IMG/VR virus record: IMGVR_UViG_3300014205_000024
Location: 1,462 to 65,461 of that record
Length of the DNA stretch: 64,000 nt
Direction: 5' to 3' (one strand)
Source: a virus
Taxonomy: Duplodnaviria; Caudoviricetes
Shown here: one piece after another, positions 10,553 to 62,906 of the stretch
Numbering within the stretch: position 1 is the first letter of the stretch
Layout of the letters: each line of letters starts with the position of its first letter
Position numbers and translations under genes: made by a program
The notes under the pieces: generated by a model
What the model saw: only the letters and a program-made list of their open reading frames with translations
Told to the model about the DNA's origin: nothing
Database searches by the model: none

Positions 10553-13500
10553 GGTCTTGGTATGCTTGGCCTGCTGTAGTTCCTTGATCACCTCAAGGGC
10601 CACCTCGTCCAGCATCTTCTCCATCTGGGGCTGCCGTCGTTCGTATTCGACGGCAGCTTCCATGACCTTCTTTTTGATCAGCCCACCCTTGTCATTCACA
10701 TAGGCCACGAAGTCCGCTTTCGAGGATTCGGCCAGACCTGGCGCAGAGTAGGGGCTCAGGTAGGACTTCACCTTGTCCAACTCCTGAACCGTCTTGATCT
10801 CTTCCTTCCCAATGAGCGCACGCAGGGCCAGCTTTACTTCGTTCCTGTCGCCCTTGATCAGGCCGTAGCGCAAAGCACGCCTGTCTGCTGTCGGCTGATC
10901 CCAAGGATCAGACTGGCCTGAGCCTTTTTTCTTTCCGATCTTCGTATTGAAGTCATCGATGATCTGGTAAAGCGAGGGCTCGGCACGTTTAATGTCAAGA
11001 CCCGCAACCTGTGCCGCCCTGATCCACTGGGGTTGAGGCGTCAGTTCATAGCGTCCACGGGGCAGGTTGCCTTCTCCAAAGACTTTATTTGCACCATACC
11101 CCACAAGCGGGGGGGCCATCAGGAACCAAAGCTTCTGTCCCATCTTGGCGAAGTTCCGGGTCGAAGCGTATTTGTCCACGGTGTATTTGCTGCCCGTCAT
11201 GGGATCAAACCCGGCAACAATCTGGAGTGCCTGAACCAAGGGCAACTGGTCAGTGACCGCCGAGTAGTTCAGCAGTCGTTCGACAAGCCGCTCGGGATTG
11301 ATGATGTCCGAAGAGTTGCGGAATCCAAGGACAGCGCCAAATGGGTTGAGGCTCGAAGCATCAAACATCAGTTGGTATCCCTGTCCTTCGCGGATAGGAA
11401 GCAGCCCCGTATTCATCCGAGCCAAAAGTTGGCCATAGCGTTCATACACCGATTCCAAATCGTCGTCGTCTGCTCCATACATTCCCTTGAAGGCTTGGGT
11501 CATGAGCATCGGAAGTCCGAGGACAAGCCCCAGCCGCGCACTCTTGCTATGCCATGCGTTCTTGAAGACTCGTCCCATTTCCAGATTCACTGCATCCGTG
11601 GCCAAGTTCTTCACTTCACCCGGAATCTGTCTGACGATGTTCTCTCCAATCTTTCCGGTCTGCTGGGCAAAGGAGGCAAATGGCATCACCGTGCGCTTGA
11701 TCCATTTGAAGGTCTGTGTCTTCGGGGTCATGTCGTAGTAGGGGAAATACTTCCTCACCTCACGGGCAGCTTCCTGCTTGCTCATGCCATCAGCAAGATA
11801 ACTGTAGTAGGTGGAAAGCTTTGTCACACTTTCGGAGAAGTCATACCCGCGCCCTACTTTTTTGTTTAATTCGATCAGGGCCTCAAACATGGCGTTCTTA
11901 TCCTTCGCACTCATGTTCTTGAGTAGGTTGGCCATTTCTTCGCCATATCCCTTGGTCAGTTCGGTGGCAGAGAAGTTACCCGCGATCACCCCAAGCTTAA
12001 GGGCTTCCGCATAATCATCCCCACCATTCCAGATGTCGCCGATTGCCTTGGAGTAGTGGTTCCAGTTGCCGGGATACCACGGGGAATTACCCGCGATGAA
12101 TGCCATTGCCGAATCCGAGATCGCGTTGTGCGTCCATGTGACGGGATTGTATTTGGTCTTGGCCGACTTCCATCCCATCATGCCCCGGTCATACCACTTC
12201 ATGATCGTTCCCGGCAATTCCAGCGGGTCGGCAATTTCCTTATACACGCTCTCCTTGATGAAGTTCCCTGTCAGAATCTCCCCGTATTTCTTGGGCGCAA
12301 GGTCATGGCGCTTCTCATGATCCATCAGCTTATGCCACTTCTTCTTTTCGCTGGGGTCAAGCTTCTCGTATTCCATCGGCGTGATAACTCCGCCTTCCTT
12401 GAGTAGGGCATCACCTGCATTATCCAAGAACTCGGCGTTGGCTTGGTCGGTGAAGGCTGTGGCGATGGCGCGTGGGATGATGTAGGCAGGATCAATGATC
12501 ATCCCGCCCATCAGTTGCCCGGTGTCCTGATCCTTCATCAGCATCACCTTCTCGTCGAATGTCAGGGGTTTGTTCACAGCGTATTTGCTGCGGACAGAAT
12601 CCCATGCTGCATTGGCGTCAGCGTTCTTGGCTTGGATCAGCTTGATGAACTCCTTGAGTCCCACCTTCTGCGTGCGGGACGAGTTGTAGAGCCCGAACGC
12701 TTCCTTGGTGACGACCTGATTCAGGGCAGAGACAGCCTGTTTGCGGGAACGGATTCGCTTCCCACGTTTGTTGTCAACCACCAGCATACCGCCCTTTTGT
12801 TTGTAGCCCCATGCGGAAAGCTTGTTGAGTTGAAGCTGGTCGGAGTCGGTATTGGCCAGCACCTGACCCACCATGTTCTGGAGTTCTTTGGCTTCCCGGT
12901 TGTAGTAATACTCGGGGAGGTATTTGTCTTTGTTGAAGTCGAAGGTTTCTTGGCTCATTTCCCCACGGTCCACCCTCGCCTGTCCAACGTCAGTCAGAAT
13001 CTGTCTCACCTTGTCATGGATGGCGCGGAGTCCGGGGCTCAACTTGTCGCGGGTCATTCCCTTTTCTCCCTTGAGTGCAAGGGTCAGGGCGATGCGTCCG
13101 GTTTCATCAGCCTCGCTGGGATCGAGGGTGATTCCGGTAATGTGTCCTGTGCCGCCTTGGGTCAGGAGTGTCTGGAGTTCCTTGGCTATTGCCATTCCGT
13201 AGTTGCGAGCAGCAGATCGTTCGACCACCACCTGACGGACTTCCTCTGGGCTGTGCGCCATGAAGCGGAAGGGTGCAACCAGATTGGTCGCAATCTCTTT
13301 CGGGCTGAGGGAATAACTCAGGTCAGAGTCTTTTTTTTTAAGCTCGTCCGAAATGTCGAATGAGCTACGGGCTGCCGGGGGGTAGGCTCTGGCCGGAACA
13401 GAGAAGTCTGTCCCATACTGGGCCATCTTTGCATCCTCCTGACGTTGATTCTCAATAATCTTGGCCACCGTTTCATTAGAGAGTGCGTTGGTTTGGCCGA

Positions 13501-16500
13501 GGTCACCCACCAGATTGGTCAGCTTCTCGACGTAGCCGGGGTCTTCCCGGTTTGGCACGATCACGGGGCTCAGTTCGCTGGCCAGATAGGAAAGCTTCTG
13601 GTTAATCGATGCCTTGGGATCAAGGCTGAATTGCAGACCGGAAAGTTTCTTGGCCAGTTCGGCGTTGGCCTTGTCCTGATCAGTGGGGGCAGACTCCTTC
13701 GCTTGAAGGGGCTTCTTCTTTTTCGGCTCGTTGTCAGGAATTTCCACTCCCTCAAGTTCTTTGACCTGTGCGGCTTCCGCATCGGCGCGTTCCTTGAGTG
13801 CCGCCTGCCACCTGTTGCCCAAGGGCTCCGTAGTGGGGAAGCTTTGCATTTCCAGAGGCACTCCGAACTCGTTGTAGAATTCCTTCATGATCTTCGGATC
13901 AATCGTGAACGGCTTACCGGGTTTGTATTTCCCAGCCAGATCATCCAGCAACTGACTGACCCGTAGTCCGGTGATTTCTTGGCCCGTGCTGTTGGCGATT
14001 TCCAAAACTTTTTTCGCGCTGCGCTTGGCAAGCGGTTTGGTGCGAAGTCTGTTGGCTTCCTCAAACTCAGGAGCCGACGGCCCCTTGCCACGATCCGATT
14101 GAACCGGACTGGCGGGAATGGTTTGGAGTTCATCCACAATGCCACGGATGCGGGTTGTTTCCCCGCCGCCCGTGATGTCAGAACTGGCACCACCACCCAT
14201 GGAAGAACCAAGGATGTGCGTGCGGACTTGGCCGAGGATGTTGGCGATGCGCTTGCGCTCAATCGGATCGGTGATCTTCTGGTTCAGGGCAGAGAGGTTT
14301 GGGTAACGCTTGGCGTTTTCCTTGTTCACCTTCTCGGCTTCTGCGGCCTCTTGCGGCGTGATAACCCTGATGTTCTTCTCAGGGATTCCGTCAAAGAGTT
14401 GGGTCAGCGTTAGTTCCTCACGGGACATATTGGACTGTCTCAGTGCCTCGGCAATAGCGTTGGTAACCTCGGGGTTCGGCACGCCGGGTTCCTTTGACCT
14501 ATCCCGATTAAAGGACGGGCCTTTACGCTCGCTGGAAAGCGGCTTGGACTTCTTGCGATCATCCATCCATGTGCGCTTGCCTTGGGATTCCTTGCTGAGT
14601 TCCCGTCCGGTGGCGATGTCTTCACCGTGCTCGGCCAGTTGTTGCTGCTGGGCGACTTTGTTATTGAACCTCGGGCCATTCAGATCGATGCCGTATTTCT
14701 TGAAGTAGTCCCGCAGGATTCCGAGGACTTCCCCGGAACTCATTTGGTTCATGGCTGCCGTCACACCCAGAGGGGAGAAGGCATCATCGTTCTCACCCAG
14801 AATCTTGAGTGAGGCGTTGTCCGTCTTGGAGGCACGGGTGATCTTGATGATCTCGTTGCTGGAGGCAGCAGCTTTGCGAAGGACGTTTCCGCCTTCATCC
14901 ATGATCCCGTTGTTTTCGTTCTCACGCTGATAGACGGCTTTGGCGGCACGGTTCAGTGCGGCCTTGCGGGTTTGTGATCCTCCAAATCCCATGGCGACGT
15001 AGGTTTCGATCAGGTCTTTGACCGTAACAGACATACCGGGAGTATCCGTATAGGAGCCGTCAGGATTCTTAACTCGGGTCACTCCACGGTTCGGGAAGAA
15101 GATAGGCTGCGAAGCATCGGGATCACTCATGATCTTAGCATATACCAAGGCTGGTGAGTTCGCTCCGATCCGAGCAAAGTTGGTCTGGCGATCCGCATCC
15201 AAGTTATCCTGAATTTCTTCGATGATCCGTTTCTTATAGGAATCCCTGATCTCTTGGGCCGTATTGTCAAAGGCTTCCAAAGCATCACCCAGTTTCCCGG
15301 TGAGGCCGGGCGCTCCATCGGAGTCGATGTAGTCACTGATGTCCAGACGCCCATCGTCAATGCCCTGTTCGTTCTGGGACTTCCACTTGTTGTAGCGTTG
15401 CAGTTCCTCCCACAGATCGGGACGAAGCTGTTGTATGTCAGCAAAGTTCTGCTTCAACTCTTCGGCCATGTCGGCGTTGAGTCTGGCACGGAACCGGGAC
15501 ATGCTGCGCTCGGTGTAGGTTCCTGTCGGTGCTTCAAAAGAGTTTCGGTAGATGGCAGCAGTGAGGGCTCTGGCGTATGATGCCATGCGATCAGCTTCGG
15601 TTTCACCTTCAATGGTGGCCACGTTATCTGACGGGGAATCCGAGTCACCCGCAGGAGCCCCGTCCACATCATCAATCAACGGAACCTTGGTGATCTTGCC
15701 GGGGCCAATAACCTCGGGCTCAAGATACTGCCTCACGAAGTCACGGTTGATCGCTGCGTAAAGCTGTTGGATGAACTGCTTCCCGTCCTTGAATTGGGAC
15801 TTCGCGCTCTTTCCTTCCATCCCGGTTTCAACGGCATTGTCACCAAGTCCCGTGAGTTCCTTGTTGTTCTCGGTCTGGGGGACGCTGTTGAGGATGGTTA
15901 GATCGACGTTTCCGCTTTTGCCCTTGGTGGTTCCAAAGCGTCCGCTCGCCTTCCACTTGATCAACTGCTGGATGGCAAAGGCTTCGGCCAATCCTTCGGC
16001 AGCAGCAGGGGAAATCCCCATCTGTCCACCGAATCGGCTGCCCCACCAGTAACCGTGGTTACGGGCCATTTCACGGATGCTGTCGAATCCGGTTCCGCCC
16101 TTTGGCCCCTCGACACCGGGTAGGCGGCTGGTGAACAGGCGCATGAGGTCAGGATCAAGGGCGATGGTGTTCTCCTTGGCTTCCTTGGAGGTCTGCTCGA
16201 TCTTCTTGAGCACGCCGCGAATGTCGCCAACCTTACCAGATGCGATGTCCAGCAACTCAAATCCGGTCAGGTTCTGGATGCCGCTCAGTGCGGTGGCGTA
16301 ATCGTCGATGGCCTTGCGCTGTTGGGGCGTCAGGTCGGTGATCGGAATCCCTCCCTCGAAGATGGTCTTGCGGCCACGGGTTTCGCGTGCTGCGACAACG
16401 TCCGCATTCTCATTGCGTCCTGCAAGGAGTTCCTTGCGCTTGCCCTCAGTGGCATCAACGGCTTCTTCATCATCCATTCCCACTTCGGATTTCAGCAGGG

Positions 16501-19500
16501 TTCGGAGGTCTTTCAGCTTCCCACGATTGTTGGCATCGATGGGCCTGATGACTTCCTTCTCTTCCTTGAGGGTGCGAGGAACCGGAAGCTTGGCATACTG
16601 CCGCTTGGCCTTTTCGGCAACCCCCTGCATGAACGGTGAGTTCTTGATGTAGTTGCGCACCATGCGCTCCGCATTCCGGCGAAGGTTGTTGAGGCGCACC
16701 GTGGAGGCACGGGCGGCACGGTTGATCTGGAAAGCATACTGGGACATCGCATCCGTGGTGCTGGTGAAAGTCTTCTGGACGTTACCCGTTTTGTCTTCCA
16801 CTTGGACGATGTCCTGAACCAGATCGCCCCACTTGTCGATGTTGCTGGAGTGCAGAACGTCGAGCAGCCCGTCCTTAGTGTAACGCTTGGCGAACACTTC
16901 CCCGAGGTGGGCAACCAGTTCTTCATTCAGGGCAGCCGTGAATTCGGCCTCGCTGATCTTGGGGTTGTTGGCGCGGAGAACCCTGTCGTAGGTGTCCTTG
17001 AAGTGGTCGAAGTTGTAGTAGCCAAGCTGGTTGAAGAAGTCAGGCCCCGAACTCTGGATCAGTCCAGCCAGTGCGGTGACGTTGTCTCTGGTCATCAGCC
17101 CGTTTTCGAGCAAGCTGTTGAGTTGGCGATGGGTCGCTTCGTGTCCGTATTTCTGGGCGATGAAGTTGGAAATCTCCGACTTGATCGGGATAGCCAAAGC
17201 ATACCGGGCATTGATGAAGATCGTGCCGGATGCCGTATCGATGAACGCAGGTTGGACTGCGGCCTCGGGGCCAAACATCTTAACGATTTCCTCGGGCATG
17301 AGGATTTTGACGGACTTGGAGTTCTCGCCATACTTCTTTTCCACTTCCTTCTGGAGGATTTGGCGGCGGGTTTCGATCTCCTTTTTGACCTGCTCGCTGG
17401 TGGAAAGCTTCGTGCTGGAGGCTTTCATCAGTTCCCCAGCTTCGTTCTTCTGCTGCTCGGCAATCAGGTAAACCTTGTATGCCTGTTCGTAGGCGCGAGC
17501 CCGGTAGTCGGGCGATGCGGCGATGGCGTCAACGTCCTCTTGGAACCCGATGGTGTCTGGGTTGTCGGCATCGAAGTGTCCTTCCGGGTCAGCGGAGAAC
17601 TTGATGTCACGGGCCTTGGCTTCCATGGCCTTGATGGCTTCGCGGGTCGCATCGATCTCGTCGCGTGCGGCCTTGGCTTCCTTGCCCTTGAGATCGGAGG
17701 ATTCGTAGGCCACCTTCTGAGCGTTCAGCTTGGCCCTGAGTGCGGCCATGTCGGCGTTGAACTTCTTGATGGAGTTGGCAGTTTCATTCTCAGCCCCCGG
17801 CGCTTTGGCCTCGGGCTTGACTCCGAGTGCTTCCTGCAATCGCGAATAGCGAATGCCGTTGTTCCATGTCCAGAAGGCTTTCTTGCCGCCCTGCCTGTTG
17901 AATGAGGCCCCATCCTTTTCAGAGAACCCATAGGCACGGAGCGAGGTTTCCTGCCGTCCATGAATCTTATTCAGGTGCGACAAAAGTTTTTGCGTCGGCT
18001 TGTCGCCGGGTTCGCTTTCCCAGTCCTTGATCACCGGGAACCCGCTCTTACCCTTGGGTTCTTTAATGCCCTTTTCAGCCTTCACCTTGGTCTTCTTCTC
18101 GGGAACAACGGACTCAGGCGTCTTGGCCTCGGGCTTGCCTTCCGGGATTTCGATCTCATCCAGCTTGGCGTCCACTTGGGGAACAGCTTCATCCAGACCA
18201 CGGCTGATCTCAGACAAGGACATTTCTCCAATACCCTTATCCATCGCCTTGATGGTTTCGGGGCTGACCTGTGCGCCTTGGGCAACGTAGTTGCGCAGGG
18301 CTTGTTCACGGGCTCTGGCAGAAAGATCGCTCAGTGCTGCTGAACTGATCGCAGGATCACGGGAAACAAGTCGTTCAATCAGGTCGGTGTCGTCCTTGGC
18401 TGCGGGAATATCCTCGATGGATTTGATCCCGGCTGCGGCATGCTGGTTGGAAAGGGTGGCGTTGGCCTTGGCGATCTCGCTGACGCGCCATGCCTCGTCC
18501 GTCATTTCGACGATTTCCTCATTTTCCTGAGGGGTCGAAGAATCTTGGGCAATGGTGGTGTCCGTGGTGGCTACCTTGGCCTTTTTGACTTTGGCCACAG
18601 TCTGGGCGGCAGCCGCAGTGGACTCGGCAGCACTGACCTTGGCGCGTTCTTCGGCGGCGGCTTTGGCTTCGGGGCTCAGGAACTTCCCGGCCATGACGGC
18701 TTTGGTTTTGGCAGCAAACGAGGCGAGTTCAGCCGCATTGAAGTTGGCCATACCAATCCGCTTCCCGTCTGAGAACAGCTTGTTGGTTTCGCTGATCTTG
18801 GTCATCCCGCTCATGGGGCCGGATGCCATCAGGGTGAGCAGGTAGGTGTTGGTGTATTCATCCAAGTCGAACTTCTTATCTCGAACGACGCTGCCCGCAA
18901 TATCTCCTGCGGCTTGCGTGCTGAGTTCTTCGACGGGCTCCTTGATGAAGGTGTCCAGACCAACTTCTTTTGCCAGATAGGCAACACGACGGGCAATACC
19001 GGGGCCACCAACGGCTTTGATCTGTTCGATCAAGCCCTTGCCCTTGTTGAATTCACCGAATCGTCCCAAGAGTTTGTTCATGGCAACTGCGGTGATGGCC
19101 TGTGCTCCAGCTTCAATCTGCTTGGCTTTTTCGATCTCGTCAGGAGTCATGTCCGCATAGTTCGGATCGTTGGCATACATGCGCTCAAGCTGTGCGCGGT
19201 CACCACCATACTCTTGAAGTCCGGTGATGGCATACATCCCCCACTTGGTTCCGTTGATCAGGCCCGTGCGAATGGCCGGGATCATATTCCCGATCACGCC
19301 AACTCCCTGACCAATCAAGCTGGACTCCACATTGGGATTGATCCCTCTGTTGAAAATGTATTTCCCTGCCATGTCTGCGATCTCATTGGTCGCTTGGTCA
19401 ATCCGCTTGGGAGACTCGGCATACCGATCTGCTACCGCATCAAAGCCTTTGACTCGCACCAAACCAGATGTTGCGCCAGCAAGCAGGGATGCCGTGCCGC

Positions 19501-20809
19501 CGATCAGGGTAGCCAGTCCGCTTACCGCTCCCTTTCCAAGAATGGGCAGTGCGCTGAGAACCTTTTCCTTGCCCTCGTCCTTGAGGTAGTTCTTCTGGTA
19601 TTCGCGCATGGCCTGATACTTGGACATGCCGGGACGTTCTTCCATGAAGTCCTTGAAGTCTCCATAGCCCTGATTAATAAACTCGTCGGCTGTGGCTTCT
19701 TCGATCTGACGACGCTGCTTTTCCAGCACGCCCTTCATCATGTTGCCGTCTTCGGACTGAATCTTCCCACCCTTGACCGCAGCATCGATGGCGTCATAGG
19801 TCTTGATGAAATCCGCATCGTTTTTGATCCGGTCTTTCAGAACAACCGGGCGACCATCAAATGAGAAAACCGTGTCCTCGTCCTTGAGGTCTTTCTTGAA
19901 CTGCTCGGGGATTGCGGTGGAGTCTTGGAATGCCGTGGCGATGGCACCATTGACATCGATCTGTTGGTTCTTGGCCAAGTCAGACCAGATGCGCTGGAGT
20001 GATTCGTTGGCCTTTTCCACTGTGATCACACCGTTCTGGACATCACGCTCAAACATTTGTTTGGCTTCATTGAACTCAGGAACATCGCGGAGTTGCTTGC
20101 CGATCTTTCCCTCGAAGTTGCGCTGGACGTATTGATCAATGTCCTCCACATCGGAAACCTTTTCACCGTTCAGCCTATCCTCAAGTGCCTTCTGGTCTTC
20201 TTCCTCGACGAGGATATTGGCACGCACCCCTTCCTTGGGGGCTTCCTGCTTGGGATAGAGGCGACGGAAATGGTCAGGGGCGAGTCCCTTTTTTGCAGAC
20301 TCTTCATCGTTGTCGTGGATGTTCTGCTTGTAGAGGTCGTAATACTCACGAAGCTTGGTGTCGTCCTTGGGGAATCCGTCGGCATCGAGATCGGAAGTAT
20401 TATCCTCCAAACGTGCTGTCAGTGGTGTGGCCGATTGGTCGTCCTTCTTTTTATCACGCTTAAAGTATTGGCCGAAGGTCATTTCCTTCCGCTTCACGGA
20501 TGCGGCGATCTCCTGCTTGCGCAGTTCCTTTGCATCCTCTTCTTCCTGAGTGGGCTTGGTGTAGTCCTTCCGTGCGCCATAAAGTGAGCGCATGGCCTTA
20601 TCGATGTCGCCCTCATGCTGGAGGTAGGCAGTGTCAAAGTTCTTGGCGACAGCATCAACCTGTTGCTGGTTGACCTTTTTGCTCCCGATCATGTCGAGGA
20701 CGTAGCGTTGCTTGGCAATGTCAGCCTCACTCGGTTCGGGCTGTTCTACAGCCTCAGGTTCGAGTGCGGCATCTTCTTCATCTTGAAGCGGGAGTTTAGT
20801 GAGTGGCAT
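10538..20809 (-). CDS. giant internal virion/ejection protein with zincin-like metallopeptidase domain
   Basis: 3423 aa, last gene of virion operon; GHEATH + EELVAH; C-terminal KSAKTKYNP..HN and FPYYD...MPFASF motifs typical of large phage virion proteins. Confidence 0.8.
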   Translation of the reverse strand: MPLTKLPLQDEEDAALEPEAVEQPEPSEADIAKQRYVLDMIGSKKVNQQQVDAVAKNFDTAYLQHEGDIDKAMRSLYGARKDYTKPTQEEEDAKELRKQEIAASVKRKEMTFGQYFKRDKKKDDQSATPLTARLEDNTSDLDADGFPKDDTKLREYYDLYKQNIHDNDEESAKKGLAPDHFRRLYPKQEAPKEGVRANILVEEEDQKALEDRLNGEKVSDVEDIDQYVQRNFEGKIGKQLRDVPEFNEAKQMFERDVQNGVITVEKANESLQRIWSDLAKNQQIDVNGAIATAFQDSTAIPEQFKKDLKDEDTVFSFDGRPVVLKDRIKNDADFIKTYDAIDAAVKGGKIQSEDGNMMKGVLEKQRRQIEEATADEFINQGYGDFKDFMEERPGMSKYQAMREYQKNYLKDEGKEKVLSALPILGKGAVSGLATLIGGTASLLAGATSGLVRVKGFDAVADRYAESPKRIDQATNEIADMAGKYIFNRGINPNVESSLIGQGVGVIGNMIPAIRTGLINGTKWGMYAITGLQEYGGDRAQLERMYANDPNYADMTPDEIEKAKQIEAGAQAITAVAMNKLLGRFGEFNKGKGLIEQIKAVGGPGIARRVAYLAKEVGLDTFIKEPVEELSTQAAGDIAGSVVRDKKFDLDEYTNTYLLTLMASGPMSGMTKISETNKLFSDGKRIGMANFNAAELASFAAKTKAVMAGKFLSPEAKAAAEERAKVSAAESTAAAAQTVAKVKKAKVATTDTTIAQDSSTPQENEEIVEMTDEAWRVSEIAKANATLSNQHAAAGIKSIEDIPAAKDDTDLIERLVSRDPAISSAALSDLSARAREQALRNYVAQGAQVSPETIKAMDKGIGEMSLSEISRGLDEAVPQVDAKLDEIEIPEGKPEAKTPESVVPEKKTKVKAEKGIKEPKGKSGFPVIKDWESEPGDKPTQKLLSHLNKIHGRQETSLRAYGFSEKDGASFNRQGGKKAFWTWNNGIRYSRLQEALGVKPEAKAPGAENETANSIKKFNADMAALRAKLNAQKVAYESSDLKGKEAKAARDEIDATREAIKAMEAKARDIKFSADPEGHFDADNPDTIGFQEDVDAIAASPDYRARAYEQAYKVYLIAEQQKNEAGELMKASSTKLSTSEQVKKEIETRRQILQKEVEKKYGENSKSVKILMPEEIVKMFGPEAAVQPAFIDTASGTIFINARYALAIPIKSEISNFIAQKYGHEATHRQLNSLLENGLMTRDNVTALAGLIQSSGPDFFNQLGYYNFDHFKDTYDRVLRANNPKISEAEFTAALNEELVAHLGEVFAKRYTKDGLLDVLHSSNIDKWGDLVQDIVQVEDKTGNVQKTFTSTTDAMSQYAFQINRAARASTVRLNNLRRNAERMVRNYIKNSPFMQGVAEKAKRQYAKLPVPRTLKEEKEVIRPIDANNRGKLKDLRTLLKSEVGMDDEEAVDATEGKRKELLAGRNENADVVAARETRGRKTIFEGGIPITDLTPQQRKAIDDYATALSGIQNLTGFELLDIASGKVGDIRGVLKKIEQTSKEAKENTIALDPDLMRLFTSRLPGVEGPKGGTGFDSIREMARNHGYWWGSRFGGQMGISPAAAEGLAEAFAIQQLIKWKASGRFGTTKGKSGNVDLTILNSVPQTENNKELTGLGDNAVETGMEGKSAKSQFKDGKQFIQQLYAAINRDFVRQYLEPEVIGPGKITKVPLIDDVDGAPAGDSDSPSDNVATIEGETEADRMASYARALTAAIYRNSFEAPTGTYTERSMSRFRARLNADMAEELKQNFADIQQLRPDLWEELQRYNKWKSQNEQGIDDGRLDISDYIDSDGAPGLTGKLGDALEAFDNTAQEIRDSYKKRIIEEIQDNLDADRQTNFARIGANSPALVYAKIMSDPDASQPIFFPNRGVTRVKNPDGSYTDTPGMSVTVKDLIETYVAMGFGGSQTRKAALNRAAKAVYQRENENNGIMDEGGNVLRKAAASSNEIIKITRASKTDNASLKILGENDDAFSPLGVTAAMNQMSSGEVLGILRDYFKKYGIDLNGPRFNNKVAQQQQLAEHGEDIATGRELSKESQGKRTWMDDRKKSKPLSSERKGPSFNRDRSKEPGVPNPEVTNAIAEALRQSNMSREELTLTQLFDGIPEKNIRVITPQEAAEAEKVNKENAKRYPNLSALNQKITDPIERKRIANILGQVRTHILGSSMGGGASSDITGGGETTRIRGIVDELQTIPASPVQSDRGKGPSAPEFEEANRLRTKPLAKRSAKKVLEIANSTGQEITGLRVSQLLDDLAGKYKPGKPFTIDPKIMKEFYNEFGVPLEMQSFPTTEPLGNRWQAALKERADAEAAQVKELEGVEIPDNEPKKKKPLQAKESAPTDQDKANAELAKKLSGLQFSLDPKASINQKLSYLASELSPVIVPNREDPGYVEKLTNLVGDLGQTNALSNETVAKIIENQRQEDAKMAQYGTDFSVPARAYPPAARSSFDISDELKKKDSDLSYSLSPKEIATNLVAPFRFMAHSPEEVRQVVVERSAARNYGMAIAKELQTLLTQGGTGHITGITLDPSEADETGRIALTLALKGEKGMTRDKLSPGLRAIHDKVRQILTDVGQARVDRGEMSQETFDFNKDKYLPEYYYNREAKELQNMVGQVLANTDSDQLQLNKLSAWGYKQKGGMLVVDNKRGKRIRSRKQAVSALNQVVTKEAFGLYNSSRTQKVGLKEFIKLIQAKNADANAAWDSVRSKYAVNKPLTFDEKVMLMKDQDTGQLMGGMIIDPAYIIPRAIATAFTDQANAEFLDNAGDALLKEGGVITPMEYEKLDPSEKKKWHKLMDHEKRHDLAPKKYGEILTGNFIKESVYKEIADPLELPGTIMKWYDRGMMGWKSAKTKYNPVTWTHNAISDSAMAFIAGNSPWYPGNWNHYSKAIGDIWNGGDDYAEALKLGVIAGNFSATELTKGYGEEMANLLKNMSAKDKNAMFEALIELNKKVGRGYDFSESVTKLSTYYSYLADGMSKQEAAREVRKYFPYYDMTPKTQTFKWIKRTVMPFASFAQQTGKIGENIVRQIPGEVKNLATDAVNLEMGRVFKNAWHSKSARLGLVLGLPMLMTQAFKGMYGADDDDLESVYERYGQLLARMNTGLLPIREGQGYQLMFDASSLNPFGAVLGFRNSSDIINPERLVERLLNYSAVTDQLPLVQALQIVAGFDPMTGSKYTVDKYASTRNFAKMGQKLWFLMAPPLVGYGANKVFGEGNLPRGRYELTPQPQWIRAAQVAGLDIKRAEPSLYQIIDDFNTKIGKKKGSGQSDPWDQPTADRRALRYGLIKGDRNEVKLALRALIGKEEIKTVQELDKVKSYLSPYSAPGLAESSKADFVAYVNDKGGLIKKKVMEAAVEYERRQPQMEKMLDEVALEVIKELQQAKHTKTSDQR

Positions 20810-47776: not shown

Positions 47777-48289
47777 ATGAAAGAAGTTCCCAACCATACA
47801 GGATGCCCGGTTCAGCCGCTTGAGAAGTTCCGTCCGCATCCCATGAATCCGATCCTCCACCCACCGGGGCAGATCAATCTCTTGGCCAATATCCTTGAAT
47901 ACCAAGGCTGGCGCAACCCGATTGTCGTATCCGAGTTGTCAGGCTACATCGTCGCTGGCCACGGAAGACTCGCCGCTGCGATCCAGCTTGGGCTTGATGT
48001 GGCCCCCATCAGCAGCCAAAAGTTTACCGACGAAGCGCAGGAAATCGCGCACATGCTGGCCGACAACCGCATCGCGGAACTCGCCATCAAGAATCTGAAT
48101 AATCTCAAAGACCTCGTCCTCCACATTGATACCGGAGCGTTCAACATGGACTTGACTGGTTTTACTGAGGAAGACCTTTCCACCCTGTTCATGCCACCGA
48201 AAGAGCCTGAACCCGAACCCCAACCCAAGGAGATCAAGAGCGAAGAGACTTGCCAGCAATGCTGCCGCCGCGTCCACTTCCTTGATTAA
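47777..48289 (+). CDS. ParB/Srx-like N-terminal domain protein
   Basis: PHPMNP..H...GWRNPIVV...IVAGHGR...ADNR. Confidence 0.85.
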   Translation: MKEVPNHTGCPVQPLEKFRPHPMNPILHPPGQINLLANILEYQGWRNPIVVSELSGYIVAGHGRLAAAIQLGLDVAPISSQKFTDEAQEIAHMLADNRIAELAIKNLNNLKDLVLHIDTGAFNMDLTGFTEEDLSTLFMPPKEPEPEPQPKEIKSEETCQQCCRRVHFLD

Positions 48290-53922: not shown

Positions 53923-54116
53923 CCGCCGCTACCTCAGGCTTTACCCTCCGCTCCGTCGGCATCTCCCATGTCTCCAATACCATCCCCGACACCCAAACCC
54001 TCCACCACCTTCTCCAGACCCTCCCCCTCTCCATTCACGGCGTCAAAAACCCCTCCTTCTCCCCCATCCTCCTTGACTTCATCAAGGCCAACGACTACCT
54101 TCCATCTGTGGGGTAG
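53907..54116 (+). pseudogene. glycosyltransferase-like gene, 3' part
   Basis: RWLCLAAATSG...SNT...IHGVKT...; same frame and same NNC codon bias as 5' part; no own start codon. Confidence 0.65.
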
Positions 54117-54160
54117 ATCAGTCAGGCAGATCGTCGGGTTCAAATCCCGCCCCCGCAACC
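54107..54160 (+). pseudogene. tRNA-fMet-derived element lacking the anticodon arm
   Basis: 7-bp acceptor stem, GATC/GATC D-stem, CGGG-TTCAAAT-CCCG T-arm, ends GCAACC. Confidence 0.7.
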
Positions 54161-54168
54161 CTTTCAAC

Positions 54169-54243
54169 AAGTCTGTGGTGTAGCTGGTAGCACGGAAGCC
54201 TCCAAAACTTCCTGCCTCGGTTCGATCCCGAGCGGACTTGCCA
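54169..54243 (+). tRNA. trnW: tRNA-Trp (CCA)
   Basis: Full cloverleaf, loop CTCCAAA, GGTTCGATCC, encoded CCA. Confidence 0.92.
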
Positions 54244-54829
54244 ACTTCGGGCCGCATGCTCCCATCCCCAAAAAGCATGACCGGGTCACAGAACCCGCTT
54301 TCATATGGTATCCTCCTAGGCCCCTCGGCAGCCCTCAAAGCTTCCGGGGGGTCTTTCTTTCCCGGTATGGGATTTCCAACCACGCCAGACCCAACCTACC
54401 CCTACGACACCACGACCCCTGAGAGCACTCCCACTTGTCAACTTCCCCTCCATCCTTGCAGAATTTTTAAGTGTCCAAAATTTATAAGCCATTCTCCACC
54501 AACGGCGGCGGCCTCCTCCCCTGCGTTTCCGACTTTCTGTGCTGCAAAAAACCAGCAAGGCACATCAGTTTGGAGGGGAACCCTACAATTCTCTTAGGGT
54601 CAACCTGCGCGGCAGACCCCGGCCATACCCCATAGGGGCCGGGTCGGGCCAGACTTTTCCATGCCCACTTCCCGGCTTTCCCCTGTCTCCAGCCTCCGCC
54701 ATTGAAGGAAAGAAACCTCCATGGCTTATACTTTGTGGAAGGAACGAGAGAGACAGGACAGTGTCCCCAATGGATGCTGCCCAGTGGTAAATGCCTCTGT
54801 CTGAGTCCCTTCCATAGGAGTATCAACAC

Positions 54830-55213
54830 ATGAACATCAACTACACCACGCTGGCCAAGGCCATCCTCAAGGAACAGGCCAAGTCCGCACCCGTCGAAAC
54901 CACCAAAGTCAGCCGTAAGGCCAGCACCAAGGTCACCAAGAAGTCCTCCAAGGCAAACGACTATGTCAAGAACATGGTTGCCGCTGCCCATCCCGCTGAC
55001 CTCAGCGTCCTCCGCGAAGTCCTCGGCTTGCCTTCCGGCAAGGTCACCCTCGGCTCCCTCGTCGGCAAGACCTTCGCCATGACCCCGGCTGGCTCCACCG
55101 CCTACCGGGCCGCGAAGTGGAGCGTCCGCCGATTGTTGGCCGATCATGGCCTTAAGTTCGAGTGGGCGATCAAGGCCGATAAGGCCAAGGTCACCCTGAC
55201 CGCCGCTTCCTGA
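54830..55213 (+). CDS. basic K/A-rich protein (histone-like N-terminus)
   Basis: AGGAG RBS, strong codon bias. Confidence 0.75.
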   Translation: MNINYTTLAKAILKEQAKSAPVETTKVSRKASTKVTKKSSKANDYVKNMVAAAHPADLSVLREVLGLPSGKVTLGSLVGKTFAMTPAGSTAYRAAKWSVRRLLADHGLKFEWAIKADKAKVTLTAAS

Positions 55214-55215
55214 GC

Positions 55216-55785
55216 CCCGGCCAGCGTATCGGAAAGGCTCGGAGTCCCATCCTCCCAGCCTTATGCACTATCGAGTGCCGCTTCCCTGCTGGGGAGGCGT
55301 CCTTCGGCAGTGAGATTCACTCGCAACAAGATGGTTGAGTGAGGATCACTTCCCCCTTGTCCTTGAGGATAAGCGGCTTACGGCAGGAAGGTGCTTTGGT
55401 AGCGCTGGATGATGGGATGTGTCTGTGCCTATGGGTAGGACCATACCATGCTGCCGTAAGATCGCCTTGTCCTGAGTCTAGAGCCTTAACGGGTTCTGGA
55501 AAGGGAAGGGAAAGACTGGTCGGTGGTGTGTTGTCTCCCTAGTGGGGAATCTCATGCTGCCGACAGACCTTGTCTTAGAAGTCTGGCCAATACCATGGAG
55601 AAAGGGATTGGCTAGACGGGTGGGAACAGGTGCTGTGTCTAGCTATAGGCAACCATCATAGGCTGCCCGTGCTGGAATCTGGTGCTTGTTCCTGATGGGT
55701 AAGGGTTTAGCCAGAACTGTGCCTTGGGGCATGGGGAAGGCGGGAAGTGTGTCCATCCCTATTGGGAACATCGTATGCTGCCGGG
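55216..55785 (+). ncRNA. candidate ~570-nt structured non-coding RNA
   Basis: No credible ORF; three nested long-range stems and many local hairpins. Confidence 0.55.
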
Positions 55786-55795
55786 AAAGGGAAGA

Positions 55796-55993
55796 ATGAA
55801 TGGAATCACGCTGTGTAGGATAATTATAGTAGTGGGACTTATTGGCCTTATTTTGGCCGCGAACTATAGCGCAAAGCTACCTCAAAACCATGTGACACCA
55901 TACAAGATAATGGTTGTAACCATTGATGGAGAGGACTACATCGTGGCAAAAAGTTGGTATGGAATAGGCATCTGTCCGAAGGTGGCCAAATGA
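55796..55993 (+). CDS. small exported/membrane protein
   Basis: N-terminal hydrophobic segment. Confidence 0.55.
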   Translation: MNGITLCRIIIVVGLIGLILAANYSAKLPQNHVTPYKIMVVTIDGEDYIVAKSWYGIGICPKVAK

Positions 55994-56178
55994 ATGGAAG
56001 GCTGATACGTATCGAGATTACTCCCTGTAAGTCTGTCCACGGGTTGAACCTGGTGGAGATATGGGAGGATGGGGATAAGAGGCCGTGCTTCATGCCTAGG
56101 GCGGTTGCCATGGAAGTCATGGAGGCATTGGGGCTGGCGAAACTGAACATCAACACTCAACATGGAGTAAACAAATGA
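55990..56178 (+). CDS. hypothetical protein
   Basis: ATGA overlaps. Confidence 0.55.
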   Translation: MNGRLIRIEITPCKSVHGLNLVEIWEDGDKRPCFMPRAVAMEVMEALGLAKLNINTQHGVNK

Positions 56179-56261
56179 GCTTCTATCGAAAGCTGTGCAT
56201 ACTGCTTGTGGTCATCTACATCATCTGTGCCGCAATATGCTTCTTATTGTGGCCCGTGTAG
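56175..56261 (+). CDS. 28-aa membrane peptide
   Basis: GGAG RBS, ATGA overlap, MSFYRKLCILLVVIYIICAAICFLLWPV. Confidence 0.5.
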   Translation: MSFYRKLCILLVVIYIICAAICFLLWPV

Positions 56262-56356
56262 GGGCTTGCCTTGAGGCACGCAATGGGGGGTTGCGACCAG
56301 CAATCCAACCCCTCCATGCCTGTTCCAATGAAGGAGTAGGACAACAAGGAGATACC

Positions 56357-56551
56357 ATGAAACGTATAATCAAAACCAGTGCATGCTGCATGTATGTGCT
56401 GGCTGCTATTGCAATCGCGCTCATCCCGTTCGCCATCGGGTTTGTGCTGTCGCCCGTGGTCGACGGGTTCAGGGGCGGTCTTGTCCGTGGCCCCGAGTGC
56501 TTGAAGCGGGTTCAGGATGCCATGATGGCTGGATTGCGGGGTGCCAAATGA
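56357..56551 (+). CDS. membrane protein
   Basis: AAGGAG RBS. Confidence 0.6.
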   Translation: MKRIIKTSACCMYVLAAIAIALIPFAIGFVLSPVVDGFRGGLVRGPECLKRVQDAMMAGLRGAK

Positions 56552-56778
56552 GCGGTAACCCGCTGATGCTGGCCGATTGCCAGCCTGAACAGGACAACAC
56601 TGCCCCTCGCATCAAGGGTGCTGTCGCGTCCATCAAGCAGATCAAACATCCCCTGATGCGCAAGAACTTGAAGCGGGAAGCACACCGTTTCGAGCGGAGG
56701 ATGGCCAAGATGTCGCTGCGTCGTGGGGATGATCCTCTTGACCTCGGTGGCGTCTTCGATGGGGAGGCGGAGGAATGA
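56548..56778 (+). CDS. hypothetical protein
   Basis: ATGA overlaps. Confidence 0.55.
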   Translation: MSGNPLMLADCQPEQDNTAPRIKGAVASIKQIKHPLMRKNLKREAHRFERRMAKMSLRRGDDPLDLGGVFDGEAEE

Positions 56779-59678: not shown

Positions 59679-60674
59679 ATGACAACAACCAAAGTAACCA
59701 AGAAGATTCGCCGTCCATCCCGTAAACCCGTGGCCCCCAAACCCCGGATCACAGGCAAGACGGTGCGAAACATGAAGCGCGCACAGGTTGCGCTCAAGAA
59801 GCCGGACAGTGCCACCTTGGAATACCTCAACACGCTGCGGAACTTCCGTCGCCAGTTGAAGCAGCCGGGTGTCGTATCCAACGTCTATACCAAGGTCAAG
59901 GCAGCGTTCAAGTCGGACAACCAACAGTTCATCACCGTCCTGCGTGACGAGGGCATGCTTGCATCCGGCAAGATTCGCCTTGCAAGCGTGGAGTTGGAGT
60001 GCTTCTTCCTATCCAATGAAGATGAAAACCAGGCATGTCGCTTCATGGAGCAGCAGAAGTTGACCGTGATCAGCAATGATCCTTCGGTGACTGAATGTGC
60101 CTCGGGTGCGAGTGGCTATGAGTTCAAGGTGACCTCGATTGTCGGACGGTGGGAGCGGCTCAAGCAGATCGCTTCCTTCATCGAGGGCGCGGCAACGACG
60201 GATGCCTCATGCGGAATGCATGTTCACCTGTCGGTCGGCCACCTCACGGAAGAGCGTCAAAGGATCGCCGGGAAGCGGTTGTATAACAACCTCAGACACT
60301 GGCTCTATCAGTGCGTCCCGTTGTCCCGGTTCAATAGTAGCTACTGCTGCCCAAGTAACAACCATGACAGATACGGACGTTACTGCGCGATCAACATGGA
60401 AGCCATCCACTGCCACAGCACGATTGAAATGCGGTTCCCTCCGGGATTCTCCTGCGCCAACGACATTGTTGGCTGGCCCATGGTGGGGTCGTTCCTGCTG
60501 GATTCCCCCCGTTCCTACCGTGACTGGCAGGACTTCCTGACCCATGCCGACGGGAAGCTGGAGCCGTGGGTGATCGCTTGGTTGAGCCAACTGCGTGCTG
60601 CCAACCAAGGCACGTGGCTTAATGCCGACGGGTCGCGTAACAGTATCTGCCCGAACTTCAAACCACTATCCTGA
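59679..60674 (+). CDS. putative amidoligase (COOH.NH2 ligase type 2), copy A
   Basis: SVELE, DPSV, YEFK, SCGMHVHL, RYCAIN, TIEMR. Confidence 0.88.
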   Translation: MTTTKVTKKIRRPSRKPVAPKPRITGKTVRNMKRAQVALKKPDSATLEYLNTLRNFRRQLKQPGVVSNVYTKVKAAFKSDNQQFITVLRDEGMLASGKIRLASVELECFFLSNEDENQACRFMEQQKLTVISNDPSVTECASGASGYEFKVTSIVGRWERLKQIASFIEGAATTDASCGMHVHLSVGHLTEERQRIAGKRLYNNLRHWLYQCVPLSRFNSSYCCPSNNHDRYGRYCAINMEAIHCHSTIEMRFPPGFSCANDIVGWPMVGSFLLDSPRSYRDWQDFLTHADGKLEPWVIAWLSQLRAANQGTWLNADGSRNSICPNFKPLS

Positions 60675-60684
60675 AAGGAGTTAC

Positions 60685-61830
60685 ATGAATGCATTACAAA
60701 GACACGCATTGTTTGAGAAGCAGATCGAGGCACACGAACTCAGCGAATACGCCGGGCCGTCCCTGATCTACAATCTATCTGAAATCTCCAGCCTTACCAA
60801 CCTCACCCGGTTGCGCATACTGGCACGCAAATCCCGAGGCAATCCCGATTGCTTCCGTCGGTCTGCGAGGTATGTGAAGGAGGCCCAAATCCATGGGCAG
60901 AAGAATACCAAGGAAGCTGCCATATTGATGGTGGACATGCTTCGCGCTGCGGCACAGTTCCTCATTGATGGGAAGCGGATCATCCGACAGACCAGCAAGG
61001 CATCACCCACATCCTCACGCTCGTTTGTCGAAATGATCAAGCAATCCAACACGGCCCAAGGTTCTGTTGAGATGATGAACCGGGTAATCAAGCCGGGGTT
61101 CGGTGTGACCATCGAAATCGAATGCTTCCTGCGTGAGGCTGGCGTCTCCGATGCGGTGGATAGGTTGCTTAAAATCCCCATGGTTCAGGTCAAGGAGGAT
61201 GGCAGCCTCTATGCCTACAGATACAAGGATACAAACTACCACGGAAGGGAGATTGTGGTTACGGCAGGACGCAACAACATCTTCGACAAGTTGAAGAAGG
61301 TGTGCGACATCCTTCGTGACTTCGGATATGCACAGGCCAATGAAATGTGCGGGTTGCACGTTCACTTGGACTGCCGAAATCTGGCACAGGACTCGGCGTT
61401 TAACTTCGCCAGTCGTCTGAACAAGGCGATGCCGTGGTTGTCCAAGCTGACCCCGCCGGATCGTCGGAACAATCGGTTCTGTAGATTCGAGGAAAAGCTG
61501 GACATGCACAGTTCGGAACGCTACTGGGCGGTGAACTTCCAAGCCTACCACCGTCACAAGACCGTGGAAATCAGGCAGTTCCACGGGTCCGTCCGCTACC
61601 AACAGATCAAACAATGGGTATCCCTGATCCTGTTCCTCGCTGACCGTCGCACGAATGTTACCACACTCGATGCGTTCTTCTCCAGCCGTGCTCCGACTGG
61701 CCTCAAGAACTGGGTGCTGGCGCAATACAACACGCACAACCCCAGCGAGAAAGTGAAGTCCGATCAGGTTCCCAAGAACATGCGGGTTGCCGCCCGTGTG
61801 TTGGAGGAATCCGGCATTGAGATCGAGTAA
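60685..61830 (+). CDS. putative amidoligase (COOH.NH2 ligase type 2), copy B
   Basis: GVTIEIE, KEDGSL, GREIV, CGLHVHLD, RYWAVN, TVEIR. Confidence 0.9.
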   Translation: MNALQRHALFEKQIEAHELSEYAGPSLIYNLSEISSLTNLTRLRILARKSRGNPDCFRRSARYVKEAQIHGQKNTKEAAILMVDMLRAAAQFLIDGKRIIRQTSKASPTSSRSFVEMIKQSNTAQGSVEMMNRVIKPGFGVTIEIECFLREAGVSDAVDRLLKIPMVQVKEDGSLYAYRYKDTNYHGREIVVTAGRNNIFDKLKKVCDILRDFGYAQANEMCGLHVHLDCRNLAQDSAFNFASRLNKAMPWLSKLTPPDRRNNRFCRFEEKLDMHSSERYWAVNFQAYHRHKTVEIRQFHGSVRYQQIKQWVSLILFLADRRTNVTTLDAFFSSRAPTGLKNWVLAQYNTHNPSEKVKSDQVPKNMRVAARVLEESGIEIE

Positions 61831-62014
61831 CATCATCGGAACAGTTCACAACCATATCCCCTATGTGGTAAGGGTATTCAGCAATGGGACATGCGCCTTG
61901 CATTTGTCCGATTGTTCTGTCCTCTACCGCAATCTCAACAACGCAGCGAAATCAATCAGAATGCGGGGAGGAATGTTCTTCCTACTCCGCAACCAACTCA
62001 ACCTAAGGAATTAA
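61817..62014 (+). CDS. small hypothetical protein (TTG start)
   Basis: GGAGG 9 nt before TTG; fills gap. Confidence 0.4.
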   Translation: MRSSNIIGTVHNHIPYVVRVFSNGTCALHLSDCSVLYRNLNNAAKSIRMRGGMFFLLRNQLNLRN

Positions 62015-62018
62015 ATAT

Positions 62019-62906
62019 ATGTGTAAAATTGGAGCTATCGTATTCAGCAAGCCAGTCGAATGGAATGAAACTCTGAGCAAAGTCGTGGACTCGTTCCACA
62101 AAACCCTCTGCTCCAGTGAGCGTGATGGGTTCGGGTTCATCATCCAGAGCCAAGCCAAGTCCCGTTATATCGAACGCTATGTGGACCCGGTGGATTACAT
62201 CGGCATCGGCAAGGCATTCGTGGAACGCGCCAAGCTTGGACCGATGAGCAACATGGTCGAAGGCGTCTTCGGACGGGACGGTAAGGTGCCCAAGAAAGTC
62301 CGAGCAATTATCCTTCATGGCCGCACCTCGACCAATGAGAAGAACCTTCCCAATACCCACCCGTTCTGCAAGAAGGGCTGGGCGATTGTCCACAACGGGG
62401 TGGTTGACTTCGATGCCCCGAAGGGATGGGCTTACTACTCCACCTGTGATTCGGAGCACATCGTCAATGTGCTGGCCAACCGTGGGCCGAAAGGACTGCA
62501 TGACATCAGTGGTTATATGGCCATTGTCGGACTCAATCCGCACAACGATGTGATCGTGGGACGTTGCTCCACGGCACGACTGCATGTGAGTTCAGCTGCC
62601 GTGTGTGAGACTCCCGCTCTGGTATTCGGAACGACGAGCGACAACATCACCAGCATGTTCAAGGACATCAACGTGGTGGACTATACGTCCCCCAAGATGA
62701 TCCGTGATGGCAAGCTGGTCACCCTCCGTGGTGCCAAGCAGATTGCGGTTGATGACTTCGATCTGCGTGCCGCTTCGACCTATGCCCGTAGCCAGCAACA
62801 ACGCTCGCTCGGATTCCAAACCACCAGCGGGACTTCCTCTGTCACATCGAAGACAACCTATCCAAAGTATAATGTGGTGAACGCATCTGATGTGGTGAAC
62901 GCATGA
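62019..62906 (+). CDS. class II (Ntn) glutamine amidotransferase
   Basis: N-terminal MCK, RDGFG, HGRTST, NTHPF, HNG, CDSE. Confidence 0.92.
   Translation: MCKIGAIVFSKPVEWNETLSKVVDSFHKTLCSSERDGFGFIIQSQAKSRYIERYVDPVDYIGIGKAFVERAKLGPMSNMVEGVFGRDGKVPKKVRAIILHGRTSTNEKNLPNTHPFCKKGWAIVHNGVVDFDAPKGWAYYSTCDSEHIVNVLANRGPKGLHDISGYMAIVGLNPHNDVIVGRCSTARLHVSSAAVCETPALVFGTTSDNITSMFKDINVVDYTSPKMIRDGKLVTLRGAKQIAVDDFDLRAASTYARSQQQRSLGFQTTSGTSSVTSKTTYPKYNVVNASDVVNA

Follow-up and report, generated by a model that had tools for sequence, protein, structure and literature searches.

A candidate large structured RNA element of tandemly duplicated units in an intergenic gap of a novel landfill phage

Between the stop of a gene for a 127-amino-acid (aa) protein and the start of a gene for a 65-aa protein, a novel phage carries a gap of 582 bases (55214-55795) that is non-coding. 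Does this gap hold a large structured RNA and, if it does, how would such an RNA act? The sequence belongs to the IMG/VR virus record IMGVR_UViG_3300014205_000024 (65,461 bp, with direct terminal repeats and rated complete), of which bases 1462-65461 were analysed; this whole stretch of 64,000 nucleotides (nt) is referred to here as the window, and all positions are counted from its first letter. Phages seldom carry large structured RNAs, and for most of these no function is established. An earlier reading of the sequence only, made before any database search, had proposed that 55216-55785 is either a new large phage non-coding RNA (ncRNA) with three nested stems or a self-nested inverted-repeat element. 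The answer favoured here, held tentatively and at somewhat less than an even chance, is that 55216-55785 may be a non-coding, structured RNA domain of the plus strand, which would act in cis inside a rightward polycistronic transcript, between the 127-aa gene and a membrane-protein gene. In broader terms, the gap is well supported as an anomaly of predicted structure and is a credible new large phage RNA element that appears unlike known families, a strong but unproven candidate.

Non-coding character and predicted fold of the gap

The absence of coding capacity is supported by several observations. The portion 55214-55723 is the only interval of at least 250 nt in the window without a 70-aa open reading frame (ORF) in any of the six frames, and the longest ORF inside the gap has 67 aa and a GTG start. 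No ORF opens under genetic code 4 or with TAG read as Q, and the GC content at codon positions 1, 2 and 3 is flat in every frame of the gap (0.54-0.57), the third-position GC (GC3) of the upstream gene being 0.84. Searches of its short ORFs against Pfam and PHROG at E up to 1 returned only noise, so that the gap contains no conserved ORF and no family match. An independent Logan contig spans 54500-55805 with 0 differences at a depth of 12.6, which rules out an artefact of a single assembly program. The sequence occurs in one public run only, a DNA run from a landfill metagenome, in which no variants were seen within the gap.

When the plus strand of the whole gap is folded as RNA, the minimum energy is -271.8 kcal/mol, which corresponds to a z-score of -5.82, with none of 100 shuffles as good; the individual segments were compared with dinucleotide shuffles. 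Shuffled sequences, whose equally good folding the sequence-only reading had named as a point that would speak against an RNA, match neither the whole gap nor its core (Table 1). A genome-wide scan took 1274 segments of 400 nt from the two strands and corrected their energies for composition by regression; the most extreme was 55301-55700 on the plus strand (z -5.46), the next value being -3.77. Against their own shuffles, the neighbouring genes gave z-scores of about 0 to -2.6. Within the gap, the 5′ part (55216-55342) folds weakly better than its shuffles (z -1.7, plus strand), and 55694-55785 gives a z-score of +0.2 on the same strand. In the minimum-energy architecture, a long-range stem (A) closes the whole domain, three hairpins follow in the 5′ segment, and a second long-range stem (D) encloses three core domains, the first of which contains stem C. 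Pair probabilities lie at 0.9-1.0 in most helices of this predicted fold.

The signal is biased towards the plus strand, which carries all neighbouring genes, and the fold of the minus strand is weaker throughout (z -3.20 for the whole gap). The clearest case is domain 2, which is structured on the plus strand only and is therefore G.U-dependent, strand-specific and a feature of plus-strand RNA alone. The gap is thus non-coding, with one strand that folds significantly better than composition-matched shuffles. We infer that the element works as RNA; its fold has probably been selected for pairing and probably acts in cis between the two genes.

Table 1. Coordinates of the predicted RNA features, the tandem units and the flanking genes (positions in the window; z-scores against dinucleotide shuffles)
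Feature	Positions	Strand	Details
Stem A, 5′ strand	55216-55231	+	CCCGGC-c-AGCGUA-u-CG; closes the whole domain; 14 bp, probability 0.75-0.99
Stem A, 3′ strand	55772-55785	+	holds the third AUGCUGCCG (55775-55783), with its AUG in frame with the downstream gene
Stem B, 5′ strand	55304-55318	+	UCGGCAG-UGAGAUUC; complement of 55547-55563; 15 Watson-Crick pairs, 2-nt bulge
Stem C	55363-55386 / 55451-55476	+	23 bp, including the perfect CUUACGGCAG/CUGCCGUAAG; probability 0.9-1.0
Stem D	55343-55362 / 55733-55754	+	four segments with 19 bp in total, probability 0.82-1.00; surrounds core domains 1 to 3
5′ segment	55234-55342	+	three local hairpins (55234-55262, 55266-55312, 55317-55342); holds the 5′ strand of stem B
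Core	55343-55754		z -7.18 (+), -3.85 (-)
Core domain 1	55363-55476	+	extended stem C capped by two hairpins; z -4.97 (+), -3.77 (-)
Core domain 2	55477-55580	+	hairpin 55477-55500 and a stem pairing the second AUGCUGCCG with GUCGGUGGUGUG (12 bp, 4 G.U); z -4.47 (+), +0.19 (-)
Core domain 3	55581-55693	+	hairpin 55581-55617 and long hairpin 55622-55693 (13-bp helix with 5 G.U, more pairs beyond); z -5.59 (+), -4.12 (-)
Unit U1	55346-55460	+	MAFFT alignment
Unit U2	55461-55566	+	MAFFT alignment
Unit U3	55567-55672	+	ending decayed to AGGCTGCCCG at 55660-55669
Unit U4	55673-55787	+	MAFFT alignment
Upstream gene, 127-aa basic orphan protein	54830-55213	+	GGAG Shine-Dalgarno; TGA stop at 55211-55213, 2 nt before stem A
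Downstream gene, 65-aa small protein with N-terminal hydrophobic helix	55786-55993	+	AUG 55796; 72 aa from AUG 55775; purine-rich Shine-Dalgarno at 55787-55794
tRNA-Trp	54169-54243	+	ARAGORN; Rfam RF00005, 51.4 bits; ~970 nt upstream of the gap

All of the sequence features listed in the sequence-only reading were found in place, and so was the ORF-free gap itself. Its proposal of three nested long-range stems holds in part: each of the stems A, B and C has a genuine, partner-specific complementarity, and A and C are present in the minimum-energy fold of the RNA. Stem B is absent from that fold, since the second AUGCUGCCG pairs locally, and would cost +9.5 kcal/mol if enforced; stem D, on the other hand, had escaped notice. 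Stem B does appear in the centroid of the plus strand folded with DNA parameters, as well as in the RNA and DNA folds of the minus strand, and we read it as an alternative pairing that would characterize a competing conformer.

The specificity of these pairings was evaluated with RNAduplex in a 3 x 4 matrix of the 5′ strands against the unit ends that are described in the next section. The cognate duplexes reach -23.3 (A5′ with the end of U4), -29.2 (B5′ with U2) and -29.5 kcal/mol (C5′ with U1), in comparison with -12.6 to -17.8 kcal/mol for the non-cognate ones; of random 25 x 27-nt pairs drawn from the window, 0.04% score at or below -25 and 2% at or below -20. A CGGCAG/CUGCCG core is common to stems A, B and C, which differ in their matched flanks, the pair adjacent to the core being A-U in stem C, U-A in stem B and C-G in stem A. 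Read from the sequence, these core-adjacent changes are compensatory variation among paralogous helices.

In addition, the 5′ strand of stem A contains GGCCAGCGU (55219-55227), a 9-nt perfect complement to ACGCUGGCC (54848-54856), which lies 18 nt inside the upstream gene. When 54244-55800 is folded as one molecule this pairing forms, together with several pairings between C-rich and G-rich stretches. How far the fold reaches outward is thus set by what is transcribed and translated.

Tandem units and their partner strands

Two of the motifs that had attracted attention, ATGCTGCCG and CCTTGTC, are each present three times in the gap, as the sequence-only reading had reported, and ATGCTGCCG occurs 5 times in the window (0.68 expected). 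Their repetition follows the organization of the gap, in which a 130-nt 5′ segment precedes four diverged tandem units of ~105-115 nt (U1 to U4; Table 1) that can be aligned over their full length with a mean column identity of 61% (MAFFT). Each unit begins with a CCTTGTC-like sequence and ends with TGTGT, 19-23 nt and then ATGCTGCCG. Local pairwise scores exceed those of shuffles for U1-U4 (z 7.7), U2-U4 (6.9), U2-U3 (4.9) and U3-U4 (3.9), while Tandem Repeats Finder (TRF) misses the array because the identity is low. Common descent accounts better for the shared ATGCTGCCG, which is the conserved 3′ end of four diverged units, and the alignment shows the gap to have arisen by tandem duplication of a ~105-nt unit ending in a translation-start-like sequence.

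No further copy was found with the four-unit profile in the window, even at E up to 1000, or in the only relative of the phage in IMG/VR, which was recognized through a 607-aa conserved protein (40% identity) and has only structural genes in common with it. A possible degenerate fifth copy (54724-54821), just upstream of the ribosome-binding site of the 127-aa gene, aligns with U2 in a pairwise comparison (z 5.4) and is not seen by the unit profile even at E up to 1000.

The resemblance of the unit ends to a translation start consists of a GGAC, GGGGA or GGGAA run followed, after 4-7 nt, by AUG CUG CCG. At the end of U1, UAA comes directly after AUG CUG CCG; at the end of U2, the second ATGCTGCCG is followed by a 35-codon frame (55554-55661); and at the end of U4, AUG 55775 shares the reading frame of the downstream gene and precedes AUG 55796 by 21 nt. 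Each unit end that takes part in a long-range stem matches its own partner beyond the shared 6-nt core, although the units are only ~60% identical, and the partner strands A5′ and B5′ both sit outside the array. Units that had drifted to this degree would otherwise lose partners of 13-23 bp, and the pairings thus seem to have been kept by selection. Since the four units have no consensus fold, the global fold would have been assembled after the duplication. The possibility that the units are independent folding modules is ruled out for the same absence of a consensus structure.

A cis-acting element and its alternatives

In the model proposed here, stem A would clamp the ends of the domain and stem D would enclose three separately stable domains, each of the three CGGCAG 5′ strands matching one particular CUGCCG unit end. 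A distance of 2 nt separates the upstream stop from stem A, and 1 nt lies between the far end of this stem and the Shine-Dalgarno sequence of the downstream gene, which is unpaired (55786-55795) in both the minimum-energy and the centroid folds, with AUG 55796 predicted to be exposed. The 570-nt untranslated spacer might in this manner be folded out of the way, so as to set stop and start side by side, and their juxtaposition could lead to coupled or gated translation of the downstream gene. A spacer that is G-rich, C-poor and tightly paired should also resist Rho and RNases. In addition, the CGGCAG/CUGCCG strands could be interchangeable, with stem B competing against the local pairing of the U2 end, which would provide an alternative conformer and possibly a switch. 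If the element does act in cis, a tightly packed phage operon would be seen to tolerate a 570-nt untranslated insert, folded shut between a stop and the next ribosome-binding site.

Several points weigh against a cis-acting RNA domain. The collections searched yielded no homolog, and the case therefore rests on a single sequence from one landfill metagenome and on an energy model. The four units do not share a consensus fold. Extreme folding z-scores can also arise from inverted and tandem repeats that have no RNA function, and the minus strand too beats its shuffles (z -3.2 to -3.9). Intrinsic terminators and sigma-70 promoters are no more frequent in or beside the gap than in shuffles. If the model keeps the 5′ strand of stem A unpaired, in imitation of a ribosome that terminates there, the 3′ strand re-pairs with the B5′ region instead of being freed, and simple stop-start coupling is therefore not clearly predicted.

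The best-surviving alternative is a stand-alone, trans-acting large ncRNA, excised or separately transcribed, which might serve as a scaffold, as a multimer or as a platform for proteins at the repeated AUGCUGCCG helices. The sequence-only reading had proposed a new large phage ncRNA with repeated protein-binding helices, and part of that proposal is retained here: a large structured plus-strand RNA is the leading interpretation on account of the outlying fold, which shuffles do not equal, the strand bias and the absence of a conserved ORF or protein-family match; no Rfam relative and no homolog was found for it. Such a molecule would fit the length of ~570 nt, the phage origin, the nearby tRNA gene, the closing stem, by which discrete ends would be set, and the several domains of the fold, paired with very high probability. 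The AUG of AUGCUGCCG has also been kept and yet pairs differently in stems A, B and C, which hints at a constraint on the sequence itself. Against these features, the gap has no promoter or terminator of its own and no Rfam match at E up to 10, its predicted hairpin loops lack motifs of the GNRA tetraloop/receptor type, and no homologs were found, whereas the known large ornate RNAs are widespread families. A cis element suits the data better because the ends of the domain coincide exactly with the neighbouring stop and ribosome-binding site, and an independent trans-acting RNA is considered unlikely, if worth serious attention.

A somewhat less probable view is that the gap is a non-functional scar, composed of empty leader/ribosome-binding-site cassettes left in a hyperplastic region by repeated duplication and deletion of small ORFan genes, with the structure as a by-product of partly self-complementary repeats. 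The unit ends are suggestive in this regard, as every unit finishes with a Shine-Dalgarno-like run and ATG CTG CCG, followed in the first by TAA and placed in frame with a real gene in the last; the next gene is itself an indel polymorphism (194 nt) between 11-nt repeats at two gene starts. The region is also rich in proteins of no recognizable origin: all five neighbouring proteins scanned have no family match, and the two compared with 5.8 billion clusters match only themselves. The lack of a common fold among the units points in the same direction, as does the faint candidate for a fifth copy ahead of the 127-aa gene. What a scar does not readily explain is that A5′ and B5′, outside the array, each match one diverged unit end over 13-15 bp, which neutral decay to ~60% identity should erase. 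Nor would a scar be expected to contain a domain (domain 2) that is stable solely through G.U pairs on the plus strand, or to be the strongest fold outlier in the genome, and a useless spacer of 580 nt would be unusual in a tightly packed phage genome.

A more ambitious account, quite unlikely in our estimate, takes the gap as a new class of large phage RNA derived from a tandemly duplicated initiation region. Four decoy starts, each with a Shine-Dalgarno-like run and AUG CUG CCG, would be held in three interchangeable helices, thereby making up either a switch with several states or a platform to which ribosomes, initiation factors or an RNA-binding protein of the phage would bind. Such a platform might control the membrane-protein cassette, or it might influence host translation in trans. 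More generally, a new large phage RNA with so legible an origin would offer a model for how big RNA folds arise, in which a leader with its ribosome-binding site is duplicated and matched partner strands are recruited afterwards, and its three related, mutually exchangeable helices would be open to simple compensatory mutants.

Alternatively, the gap might function as DNA, its repeats being phased iterons at an origin of replication or a partition site, or nested inverted repeats used for recombination or inversion. The second proposal of the sequence-only reading, a self-nested inverted-repeat element, fits stems B and C, which are pure Watson-Crick inverted repeats with the common CGGCAG/CTGCCG core, and fails for the G.U-rich helices that exist on the plus strand only. 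The four 19-nt direct repeats, spaced 106 to ~115 bp apart or roughly ten helical turns, would be appropriate for iterons, and both strands also give significant folds when DNA parameters are used (z -4.5 and -3.0). Nevertheless, partner-specific flanks are not expected where one protein recognizes all the sites. A large share of the signal derives from G.U pairs, which turn into C.A mismatches on the opposite strand. The contigs of the only run contained neither inverted nor rearranged forms, and no recombinase or initiator gene was found among the neighbouring ORFs scanned. A DNA-level element is for these reasons regarded as improbable. Finally, a cryptic or decayed coding sequence, for which short ORFs such as 55339-55542 (67 aa, GTG start) and 55554-55661 (35 codons) could be invoked, is scarcely conceivable given the lack of codon periodicity, the mere noise in Pfam and PHROG at E up to 1 and the absence of an open frame under alternative codes.

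Genomic setting and known RNAs

The genes flanking the gap are small orphans, all on the plus strand, and five of the neighbouring proteins have no family match in PHROGs, Pfam or PADLOC. The 127-aa protein in particular lacks a Pfam, PHROG or PADLOC match. As a possible RNA binder it was modelled with AlphaFold2, giving a confidence (pLDDT) of 61 and no fold match in Foldseek, and the ESM Atlas yielded nothing usable; it and a 131-aa protein find only themselves among 5.8 billion protein clusters. The 65-aa downstream protein has no family match either, PADLOC included.

A 49-nt Logan contig (depth 3) from the one DNA run joins 55794 to 55989, the full form having a depth of 7.7, and a minority of the phage population thus appears to lack the 65-aa membrane-protein gene. 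This 194-nt indel (55795-55988) has its break between the 11-nt direct repeats AATGAATGGAA, located at two consecutive gene starts that both encode Met-Asn-Gly. In the short form the structured region adjoins the gene 55990-56178, with the ribosome-binding-site context unchanged.

On the other side of the 127-aa gene, the tRNA gene placed near the gap by the sequence-only reading is indeed ~970 nt away; where several tRNAs had been suspected, a single one, tRNA-Trp, was called, and the adjoining 54107-54161 contains no tRNA-like gene according to ARAGORN or Rfam. Between tRNA-Trp and the 127-aa gene lie 586 nt (54244-54829) that are C-rich and G-poor, have listed ORFs without codon periodicity and fold slightly better than shuffles (z -1.8). 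They may represent a second untranslated stretch with a composition like that of a Rho-loading site. CGGCAG occurs there twice (54326 and 54610), ATGCTGCCC is found at 54773, and 54773-54807 resembles the U1/U2 junction. Whether this C-rich region is an inverted copy of the gap was also considered and rejected, as the similarity is not significant.

Further away, 4-7 kb downstream (59679-62906), two adjacent proteins with Amidoligase_2 domains are accompanied by one with a GATase_6 domain; the 411-aa amidoligase has no close relative in IMG/VR. A 170-aa ORF (47777-48289), 7 kb upstream, looks ParB-like to the eye from its translation, a resemblance that would fit a DNA-level element. The minus strand at 10538-20809 carries a 3423-aa ORF without a Pfam family or a sequence match to any solved structure in the Protein Data Bank (PDB), and unmatched by any ORF of the IMG/VR relative in a protein comparison; we take it, by size alone, to recall the virion RNA polymerases of N4-like phages. 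PHROG gave no match for the structural proteins of the phage.

Searches for a second example of the element covered several collections. By blastn, nothing resembling the gap was found in 50,697 phage records or 72,556 plasmids. In IMG/VR, the pattern CATGCTGCCG..CCTTGTC occurs at 69 loci, none gap-like by blastn or nhmmer, and the pattern ATGCTGCCG..85-115..ATGCTGCCG at no fewer than 117 loci, with none gap-like among the matches listed by the same two programs. A three-part pattern retrieved 23 metagenome loci, all of them unrelated coding repeats, and a pattern for stem C retrieved 5 loci in genome contigs, all chance palindromes. The search for related loci with the 127-, 190-, 292-, 411- and 405-aa proteins, encoded near the gap or elsewhere in the genome, yielded nothing, and the IMG/VR relative has no match to the gap, its own largest gap being unstructured.

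Comparison with Rfam 15 by cmscan over the whole window left only the tRNA above gathering thresholds. At E up to 10 in 54000-56600, the matches of the gap were noise (SNORD71, G-CSF_SLDE and SOX2OT), far below gathering scores. GOLLD, ROOL, OLE, raiA, RNase P, group I and II introns, 6S RNA and self-cleaving ribozymes are all rejected as identities of the gap, none of their Rfam covariance models matching at E up to 10; the families that the sequence-only reading had singled out for comparison (GOLLD, ROOL, OLE, RNase P and group I/II) are among them. Transfer-messenger RNA (tmRNA) is likewise rejected, with none called by ARAGORN and no Rfam match at E up to 10.

Other repetitive systems can be set aside as well. 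The clustered repeats of a CRISPR or mini-array measure 25-40 nt and are separated by unique spacers of about equal length, whereas the period here is ~105 nt and similarity runs across whole units. Like CsrB and RsmZ, the gap is repetitive, several hundred nt long and rich in GGA (22 motifs, compared with a genome mean of 13 and a standard deviation of 4.3 per 586 nt); a sponge of this type is nevertheless ruled out, since most of the 22 are buried in stems and only ~4 have an unpaired G-G-A core, and no Rfam match to CsrB, RsmY or RsmZ was obtained for the gap. ToxI, the antitoxin RNA of type III systems, consists of near-identical tandem repeats of 34-45 nt directly upstream of the toxin gene. 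The gap resembles it as a tandem-repeat RNA directly upstream of, and co-oriented with, a small gene, but a ToxIN-like system is excluded by units of ~105 nt that are ~61% identical, by the absence of an array detectable with TRF and by downstream proteins without a ToxN or PADLOC match.

With the PeSL cassettes of T4-type phages, reportedly short motifs scattered before many genes, the gap shares repeated intergenic motifs, a small-ORFan region and the gain or loss of a gene between short repeats at gene starts. The gap units differ in being ~105 nt long, confined to this locus, tandem without intervening genes, tied by long-range pairings and devoid of a recognized promoter consensus, and a PeSL-like dispersed cassette is ruled out because the unit profile finds four copies only in 64 kb.

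A precedent for a cis-acting RNA domain comes from phage MS2, where the 'Min Jou' interaction between the coat and replicase genes couples the translation of neighbouring cistrons by long-distance pairing. In both cases a long-range helix joins the end of one frame to the next initiation region, with its upstream strand situated where a terminating ribosome would unwind it. Unlike MS2, the Shine-Dalgarno sequence and AUG 55796 of the gap are predicted to be exposed, and only the in-frame upstream AUG 55775 lies in the stem; the 570-nt spacer has an elaborate predicted fold of its own, and the opening of stem A is modelled as re-pairing and not as release.

Lastly, ROOL and GOLLD are large ornate RNAs of phages and prophages that have been shown by cryo-EM to form multimers (bioRxiv 10.1101/2024.12.08.627333). 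Like them, the gap comprises several hundred nt of non-coding sequence, belongs to a phage genome, has a tRNA gene in its vicinity and a multi-domain predicted fold, and is of undefined function. In contrast to the gap, ROOL and GOLLD are widespread families, and the gap differs from both in being made of four diverged tandem units and in filling exactly the interval between a stop codon and the next ribosome-binding site.

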